Shown: in pieces, positions 3,706-30,341 of the stretch
Layout of the letters: each line of letters begins with the position of its first letter
Position numbering within the stretch: the stretch's first letter is position 1
Assembly (NCBI GenBank): GCA_030606485.1
Contig: JAUWGH010000007.1
Location: forward strand, 60,001 to 92,000
DNA length: 32,000 bases
Reading direction: 5' to 3'
From: Promethearchaeota archaeon
Lineage (GTDB): Archaea > Asgardarchaeota > Lokiarchaeia > Sigyniarchaeales > SOKP01
Position numbers and translations under genes: made by a program
Notes under the pieces: generated by a model
The model's database searches: none
The model's input: only the letters and a program-made list of their open reading frames with translations
Told to the model about the DNA's origin: nothing

Positions 3706-4014
3706 TTGAAAAAATTCATTCTTACAAATATTTTTGGTAATACGGTTCGAATAAAAATTCTTGAACTTCTTCTTGATAACATTTTGAAAAAAGAGGTTGA
3801 ATGGGAGTATATCTCTAAAATTGCTAAAGAAGCTGGAATCTCTACTTCATCTTCAAAACGGGTTATTGATTCACTCGTAGAATCTAATATTGTCGATGAA
3901 TTACCCATTAAAACTCATGCAAAAAATCCAAAAAGAAGTATTCGATTAAATTTAGATAATAAAATCGTTAACGAGCTAATCTTTTTTTATCGGAAAATCC
4001 GAGCCTTTAAATAA
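3706..4014 (+). CDS. Winged helix-turn-helix protein (putative transcription regulator)
   Basis: RIKILELLL...ISKIAKEAGISTSSSKRVIDSLVESNIV, followed by a wing hairpin. Confidence 0.75.
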   Translation: MKKFILTNIFGNTVRIKILELLLDNILKKEVEWEYISKIAKEAGISTSSSKRVIDSLVESNIVDELPIKTHAKNPKRSIRLNLDNKIVNELIFFYRKIRAFK

Positions 4015-4030
4015 ATATTCATTTTTTAAA

Positions 4031-4195
4031 TGCAGGGAGTGGGATTCGAACCCACGAAGAGCTATCTCACCGGATATCTCATCTGAAATTAGTGAGATCA
4101 ACGGAAATCATATTAATTAGATCTTGAGTCGAGCTAATGAGAAAGCTTTTTTCCCAAAAGAGTCCGGCACCGTTGACCAACTTGGTTATCCCTGC
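4031..4195 (-). tRNA. tRNA-Leu(CAA) with two introns (34 nt, probably 32/33; 47 nt at canonical 37/38)
   Basis: Acceptor GCAGGGA/TCCCTGC, anticodon stem CCGGA/TCCGG, long variable arm and T-arm GTGGG-TTCGAAT-CCCAC. Removing both inserts gives the loop CT-CAA-GA and an 84-nt tRNA. Intron 2 (4076..4122) has a perfect CTCA/TGAG BHB helix. Confidence 0.9.
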
Positions 4196-4329
4196 TTGAA
4201 GAATTTTTAAATAAAATAATATTTCAATAAATAAAAATCATTTTATAATCACTTTAACCAGACTTAGTCTTATAAATAATTAATAGTTTAACATAGTTTT
4301 AAAATCAAGATCAATTGAAAAAAGAAGAT

Positions 4330-4374
4330 ATCCTGTGGCGTAGACCTACAGGGGTTCAAATCCCTCCTCCTACA
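4330..4374 (+). pseudogene. Orphan 3' half of a tRNA-Leu (split-tRNA half or relic)
   Basis: A-TCCTG-TGGCGTAGACCTAC-AGGGG-TTCAAAT-CCCTC-CTCCTAC-A aligns with the 3' half of tRNA-Leu(GAG) at 28906..29018. I found no matching 5' half (GTAGGAG...CAGGA) nearby. Confidence 0.75.
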
Positions 4375-4402: not shown

Positions 4403-4630
4403 TTAGCCTCCCCCCATTAGGAACATGACAATGAACATTACAACCATCATACCAATTAGAAAATACATCTGAATTTTGGATTTTTTTTTCTTTTTTTTCT
4501 CGTAAGATATTGCAGAATCCTTACAATCTTGGCCACAATATTGCTTACCTTCTGGTATAGCCCTTCCACAGATAATACAATGTTCATGAGGACCATATTT
4601 TTTTTGTATTTTATCTTTCCAACTTGACAA
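4403..4630 (-). CDS. DUF2116-like Zn-ribbon membrane protein
   Basis: PHEHCIICGRAIP...YCGQDC plus a C-terminal TM helix. Confidence 0.8.
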   Translation of the reverse strand: MSSWKDKIQKKYGPHEHCIICGRAIPEGKQYCGQDCKDSAISYEKKKKKKSKIQMYFLIGMMVVMFIVMFLMGGG

Positions 4631-28905: not shown

Positions 28906-29018
28906 TGGTGAAGGAGGGGGGATTTGAACCCCCGAAGGCCTACGCCAATGGAACCTCAGTCCATCACCTCTAATCTCTTGATCTATATCAAGATTTGACC
29001 ATGCTTGGCGACTCCTTC
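28906..29018 (-). tRNA. tRNA-Leu(GAG) with 25-nt intron at ~21/22; CCA encoded
   Basis: Acceptor GAAGGAG/CTCCTTC; anticodon arm ATGGA-CT-GAG-GT-TCCAT. Intron 28970..28994 has helix GGTC/GATT, bulges AA|A and AG|A, and a 7-bp hairpin. Confidence 0.93.
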
Positions 29019-30244: not shown

Positions 30245-30341
30245 AGCCTCTGGAGGGAATTGAACCCTCGACCTTCTGATTACGACTTCTGTGCTTTAAT
30301 ACATATACATATCAGACGCTATACCACTAGGCTACAGAGGC
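30245..30341 (-). tRNA. tRNA-Thr(CGT) with 25-nt intron at 32/33
   Basis: Acceptor GCCTCTG/CAGAGGC with U73. Intron 30286..30310 has a perfect TCTG/CAGA helix and bulges AT|A and AG|T. The spliced loop is TT-CGT-AA. Confidence 0.92.

Follow-up and report, generated by a model that had tools for sequence, protein, structure and literature searches.

A probable pseudogene relic of a displaced tRNA-Leu(CAA) allele, and evidence for cross-genus replacement of the gene, in a lokiarchaeial genome

We analysed a 32,000-nucleotide stretch of a Promethearchaeota archaeon (assembly GCA_030606485.1, contig JAUWGH010000007.1, positions 60,001 to 92,000; referred to here as the window), in which an isolated 3' portion of a tRNA-Leu lies at positions 4305–4374. 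We conclude with considerable confidence that this sequence is a non-functional pseudogene relic of a displaced tRNA-Leu(CAA) allele. A sequence-only reading had left it undecided between a trans-spliced split tRNA and a relic, and the second possibility is borne out by the complete parent gene, designated allele B, that is present at the orthologous site in two relatives, the metagenome contig L041 and the genome G004. In the window the place of allele B is taken by a gene with the same anticodon, allele A, and comparison across the family makes a well-supported case that this essential tRNA gene has probably undergone serial replacement by alleles of other genera. The features of the region are as follows, in window coordinates.

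3706–4014, plus strand: small ORF forming the left flank of the insert, native to the genus and 3% divergent from L041
4029–4304, no strand: inserted segment of 276 bp that replaces 95 bp of the ancestral site (window versus L041)
4031–4195, minus strand: allele A, the replacing gene, an intact tRNA-Leu(CAA) with two introns and an Rfam tRNA match
4196–4250, minus strand: leader/promoter region (55 nt) that came with allele A, 82–86% identical to G107, G116 and G071 of genus g11
4264–4304, minus strand: allele C leftovers, namely the end of its D-loop intron (4264–4269) and its distal upstream region (4270–4304)
4305–4374, plus strand: relic of allele B, the former resident tRNA-Leu(CAA), with positions 33–37, the 37/38 intron and 3' exon 38–73
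4305–4309, plus strand: U33, CAA anticodon and G37 of allele B, at the right-hand junction of the insert
4310–4329, plus strand: canonical 37/38 cis intron of allele B, 20 nt, 18 of 20 identical to the intact L041 intron (as called by ARAGORN)
4330–4374, plus strand: 3' exon (38–73) of a class II tRNA-Leu, with four substitutions relative to the intact allele
4403–4630, minus strand: DUF2116 zinc-ribbon gene (Pfam PF09889, E 5e-16)

Alignment of the relic with the intact gene of L041 (L041:11281-11383) is gap-free and shows 64 of 70 positions to be identical, with not one matching base upstream of U33. The match to the relative's complete gene, which has no better hit in the window's genome (88% identity, E 2e-23), is far above chance. 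The previous description of a 3' half beginning at position 38 is correct for the class II exon, but homology begins earlier, at U33, and the anticodon is CAA rather than the UAA or UAG that had been considered. Similarly, the splice-site-like junction is real, with GAAG-AT preceding the 3' exon at 4324–4329, but it belongs to a cis intron inherited from the parent gene; what had been taken for a leader is, on this alignment, allele B's own 20-nt 37/38 intron. GAAG had been counted as a point against function; because the intact allele B also carries GAAG-AT at the 3' end of its intron, the motif in the relic is not a product of decay. The four exon substitutions are A42T, a G to A change in the variable arm, G49A and G71A, each of which costs one stem pair, and the A49-C65 and variable-arm mismatches described earlier are indeed present.

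L041 carries the complete allele B at the same site and on the same strand, with a single 20-nt 37/38 intron and without allele A, and its flanking genes are 0.6–8% divergent from those of the window (flanks 92–99% identical). In G004, an outgroup species of the same genus whose flanking genes are 19–36% divergent from the window, a complete plus-strand tRNA-Leu(CAA) with three introns occupies the site, and the allele B exons are nearly identical between L041 and G004. These data show that the genus ancestor had one tRNA-Leu(CAA) here, allele B, on the plus strand and with one 37/38 intron. The GAAG-AT end also gives the intact allele B intron a relaxed BHB with a poor central helix, two of four pairs being formed in L041 and three of four in G004 (L005:1288-1441) when counted in the canonical register. 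Despite this, allele B is the only tRNA-Leu(CAA) at the locus in both, which suggests that the splicing endonuclease may be very relaxed.

The 95 bp lost from the ancestral site correspond to the allele B promoter and positions 1–32. The divergent tRNA-Leu(CAA) that was correctly placed 135 bp from the 3' half is allele A, which is called Leu(CAA) once spliced in silico and is the only such gene of the genome; being the only copy, it is presumably functional. With its introns it is 87% identical to the gene of G107, which belongs to genus g11 together with G071, G072, G073, G079, G098 and G116. The leftovers of a third allele, allele C, abut the relic; positions 4264–4269 are the last 6 nt of its D-loop intron, and they are joined to the distal upstream region by an 89-bp deletion of the C promoter and 5' exon. 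G001 and G002 have an insert that is 89 bp longer and that keeps the promoter, 5' exon and D-loop intron of allele C on the minus strand. This C relic ends at the 3' end of the D-loop intron and is identical to the intact G073 gene at 51 of 56 positions, and its upstream DNA is 81–87% identical to G072, G098 and G079 up to the junction with allele B.

The non-coding DNA of the insert is 81–91% identical to g11, although the adjacent DUF2116 coding DNA is only 52–66% identical (52–64% for G107, G116 and G071, the genomes that match the leader). Since the non-coding DNA is more alike than its coding neighbour, the comparison points to lateral transfer, with g11 or an unsampled relative as the putative source; by the same contrast between insert and flank identities, the replacement appears discordant with host ancestry. 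The exact donor was not found, the best matches being 87% (allele A with introns) and 91% (the C relic). No Pfam match was obtained for the small ORF at 3706–4014. Between window positions 2438 and 6432, comparison with L041, L044 and L045 shows the flanking genes to be mosaic, their divergence ranging from 0.6% to 12% depending on the gene, which points to frequent homologous recombination among these close species.

The relic and its junction are found in G001, G002, G003 and contig L042 as well as in the window, five genomes in all, and the occurrence of the same junction in four other assemblies shows that it is not a chimeric join. A42T and one intron change are common to all five, and the relic therefore has one origin. 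In the window's lineage, probably foreign DNA joined at the anticodon loop of allele B has replaced the B promoter and positions 1–32 and left behind positions 33–73, the intron and B's own downstream flank. The incoming tRNA-Leu(CAA) alleles, related to those of g11, lie in the opposite orientation; allele C would have arrived first and allele A next, with A displacing the 3' part of C and now remaining as the only tRNA-Leu(CAA). A later 89-bp deletion in the window's lineage would then have taken most of the C relic; we infer this order of C, A and deletion.

DUF2116 is a conserved landmark beside tRNA-Leu(CAA) across the family. A script found a Leu(CAA) gene downstream of DUF2116 in 106 of 113 loci, which represent the family and include one locus from the sister family; the gene points against DUF2116 in 19 of these 106, distributed over six genera, and each large genus holds several Leu(CAA) allele types. 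In G107 (L089/L159) the old promoter, an inverted allele A and a decaying 3' part of allele C with both introns are found together, and the displaced allele C is still intact in G073; we read this as the layout of the window reached by an independent event in genus g11. In G014, G074 and G094 an A-like gene is preceded by 11–18 nt left over from the 5' end of a C-type allele, probably as the result of one event. Counting relics only where they lie beside a complete gene, and kin not being independent, we arrive at about four displacement events in all.

Several relatives carry additional DNA at this locus. G157 has a 2.4-kb insert between DUF2116 and Leu(CAA) (L142:243-2740), in which a 311-aa ORF shows a weak LAGLIDADG_3 match (E 5e-4, below the Pfam cut-off). 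Single lineage-specific ORFs lie beside Leu(CAA) in G114 (L150:12389-13741), G104 (L151:308-826) and G118 (L153:5273-6022), and the site appears to behave as a small insertion hotspot. In the G157 tRNA, about 16 nt of the D-loop and first intron recur within the second intron, a hint that introns may be born by local duplication. L125 (G108) has, at ∼490–550, a second copy of the final 7 nt of the tRNA ∼55 bp further downstream, which resembles a small att-type duplication.

With regard to the joining mechanism, we think it likely that a short chromosomal fragment was taken up and integrated by illegitimate or microhomology-assisted recombination, which would be survivable only because the fragment supplies a working gene of the same anticodon. 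This route is favored because the inserts consist of tRNA, promoter and spacer only, because the breakpoints differ, and because G079 suggests a 4-nt microhomology at the anticodon, albeit weakly, given that the identity to G079 is only 81%. On both sides, native sequence extends to the junction with no clear homology anchor visible, and this counts against a homology-facilitated model.

A possible but distinctly less probable mechanism is that of an integrative element, in which a tyrosine integrase would have crossed over in the anticodon loop of allele B and brought its own tRNA-Leu(CAA), with the rest of the element being deleted later; this competes with fragment uptake on mechanism only, and not with the relic reading. 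It would account for the start of the relic at U33 in the anticodon loop with the host downstream flank kept, as in an attR site, and it is in keeping with the extra genes beside the tRNA in a few relatives (G157, G114, G104, G118) and with precedents in tRNA-dependent lysogeny (PMC10865867) and in Caldiarchaeum (PMC3293823). However, the break in the anticodon loop is one case that the 4-nt microhomology may explain, and there is no direct repeat of a restored tRNA 3' part, the neighbour being inverted and of a different allele. A duplication or att relic had been suggested earlier; the own genome holds no complete gene with this 3' half, although the parent is complete in relatives. No integrase is encoded in the window, as had been noted, none was seen in the relatives' loci that were inspected (without a profile scan), and the genome's two tyrosine recombinases (PF00589) are on another contig, C1. 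A scan of 2.9 million viral contigs with two patterns gave no match. Furthermore, the left half of allele B has been lost, the alleles that came in are of the ordinary chromosomal kind found in other genera, and the breakpoints fall at different places, namely at U33, near the 37/38 intron start and at the D-loop intron end. It is unlikely that a targeted route exists in Lokiarchaeia by which whole intron-bearing tRNA genes are exchanged among genera in the form of ∼250-bp cassettes, and which would cut the resident gene at or near its splice motifs (U33, the 37/38 intron start and the exact 3' end of the D-loop intron).

The polarity of the replacement could also be reversed. The resident would then have been allele A, or A together with B, and of B no more than the 3' part would have arrived or survived. 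In favor of this scheme, A-like two-intron alleles are old and widespread across the family and occupy the strand most often used, and L041 and the relic-bearing genomes have flanks that are mosaic relative to each other. Nevertheless, allele B, its strand and its upstream spacer are common to the outgroup G004 and L041, and A is never found by itself in a genome of the genus. The allele A leader has its nearest match in another genus, two clean losses of A would be required, and we consider reversed polarity improbable. L041 is as close to the window as G001 and G002 are, and its allele B may have been kept or may have been regained by recombination.

The relics are now decaying. Among the five genomes the relic exon is variable at 12 of 45 positions, whereas the allele A exons vary at 0 of 84 (Fisher P 1e-6, with sites treated as independent), and the variable positions of the relic include five in the acceptor or at the discriminator as well as the universal C56, which is changed in two genomes. 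The relic alone has no significant fold (z -0.44). Co-option, for example as a small RNA or to provide the convergent DUF2116 gene with a terminator-like structure, might be advanced to explain why five genomes still have the B relic when the adjacent C relic is deleted in three, and TATA-like words do occur upstream; but the region is ∼85% A+T, so these words carry no weight, and a relic that mutates freely, accumulates pair-breaking changes and lacks a significant fold makes such a role very improbable.

The genome from which the window derives (G000; 3.75 Mb, 13 contigs, 100% complete by markers) has five tRNA-Leu genes, all continuous and each called tRNA-Leu after in-silico splicing (T-arm census with follow-up). 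ARAGORN miscalls most intron-rich genes here and was applied to spliced sequences only.

C6:64031-64195: Leu(CAA), allele A
C6:88909-89018 (window 28909–29018), minus strand: Leu(GAG), with a D-loop intron
C6:9463-9564: Leu(TAG)
C10:757586-757703: Leu(TAA)
C8:130251-130335: Leu(CAG)

The Leu(GAG) gene was missed by ARAGORN, and Rfam gives only a weak tmRNA match. Other tRNA genes noticed include a tRNA-Thr(CGU) whose anticodon arm holds a 25-nt intron (window 30245–30341, minus strand) and an intron-bearing tRNA-Sec called by ARAGORN (C2:189902-190018, minus strand); non-canonical introns are present in most tRNA genes of this genome, some of them in the T loop.

A functional trans-spliced tRNA-Leu, with its 5' half elsewhere or unassembled, has the 3' splice-site-like junction at 37/38 in its favor as well as the gaps possible in a genome of 13 contigs, but is refuted by the tests that the sequence-only reading had itself laid down, because there is no free 5' half and intact Leu genes are present. 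The absence of a 5' half from the flanking sequence extends to the whole window and the whole genome; motif scans, fuzzy matching and BLAST with the intact parent gene recovered no half other than those belonging to complete genes, an nhmmer profile built on Leu 5' halves gave nothing below E 10 except the five Leu genes and Ser(GCT), and three other relic-bearing genomes likewise lack one. Intact Leu(TAA) and Leu(TAG) genes were found as had been asked, and no Leu anticodon is without a continuous gene. A search for a complement to the presumed leader at 4290–4327 stayed at chance level, the longest match elsewhere being 17 nt, in non-tRNA DNA (8 of 30 shuffles do as well, range 13–19), and that leader is the parent gene's cis intron. 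Exon decay that reaches C56, as described above, also speaks against a split gene, and we attach almost no probability to it.

Several further candidates were rejected. Trans-splicing to the allele A 5' exon would leave two acceptor pairs mismatched and break the 28-42 pair. Nor can the B and C relics pair with each other, either in G001 and G002, where C is without an anticodon arm and the acceptors mismatch, or in the window, where the C exon is deleted. In a permuted gene a 5' half should follow on the same strand, and there is only an A+T spacer and the end of DUF2116. Duplication of one of the genome's own Leu genes is contradicted by the GAG, TAA and CAG 3' halves, which are 82–89% identical over 45–55 nt and have no intron, while the match to the parent allele of relatives extends over 82 nt. 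An assembly chimera is dismissed by the other assemblies listed above.

The relic itself is without evident function, and its value is that of a fossil. It indicates that alleles with different introns, which would come from other genera, took the place of an essential single-copy tRNA gene on two occasions in one lineage and, independently, in a further genus. Replacement of whole alleles alters intron number and position without any intron insertion, and on a species tree it would look like a series of intron gains and losses. A preprint on Asgard tRNA introns (10.64898/2026.10.13.758758) deals with other families and leaves the route of intron arrival open; the routes put to the test there were within-genome copying, mobile elements and reverse transcription, and the words 'horizontal' and 'replacement' do not occur in its text. 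The targeted cassette route, if true, would be a route of intron arrival outside those tests. An incomplete literature search turned up no publication that describes tRNA alleles of Asgard archaea being replaced across genera. There is also a caution for split-tRNA searches, in that a relic keeping its cis intron mimics an exon split at 37/38.

The arrangement has partial parallels in known systems. Trans-spliced split tRNAs of Nanoarchaeum, Caldivirga, Aeropyrum and Staphylothermus (Chan et al. 2011, PMC3218864) resemble it in having a stand-alone 3' exon from position 38 behind a splice-like junction, but they have a partner half, G+C-rich complementary leaders that form a BHB and an otherwise missing tRNA, none of which is seen here. 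There is likewise a resemblance to the tRNA-dependent lysogeny of mycobacteriophages (Guerrero-Bustamante and Hatfull 2024, PMC10865867), which however needs a phage integrase and a prophage; neither was seen here, and the incoming alleles are chromosomal. Closer is the tRNA-Thr(GGU) fragment (tRNAThr-F) of Caldiarchaeum subterraneum and the heterogeneity of its locus (Sugahara et al. 2012, PMC3293823), where an orphan piece of a former allele is also found next to a complete one that has the same anticodon but another set of introns, and where close relatives also differ in the allele carried. That case involves a 5' fragment, a direct repeat and a 1.8-kb insert with a putative recombinase, whereas here there is a 3' fragment, in inverted arrangement, with a 276-bp insert of tRNA DNA only that is traceable to another genus, stacked twice and repeated independently. 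In the sequential displacement arrays of Vibrio T6SS modules (Kirchberger et al. 2017, PMC5361080), for which homology-facilitated illegitimate recombination is the proposed origin, successive horizontal modules similarly displace part of the resident and orphan pieces remain. The Vibrio modules are protein genes under diversifying selection whose orphans may be useful; here the gene is that of an essential RNA, some of the insertions are inverted, and the orphans decay.
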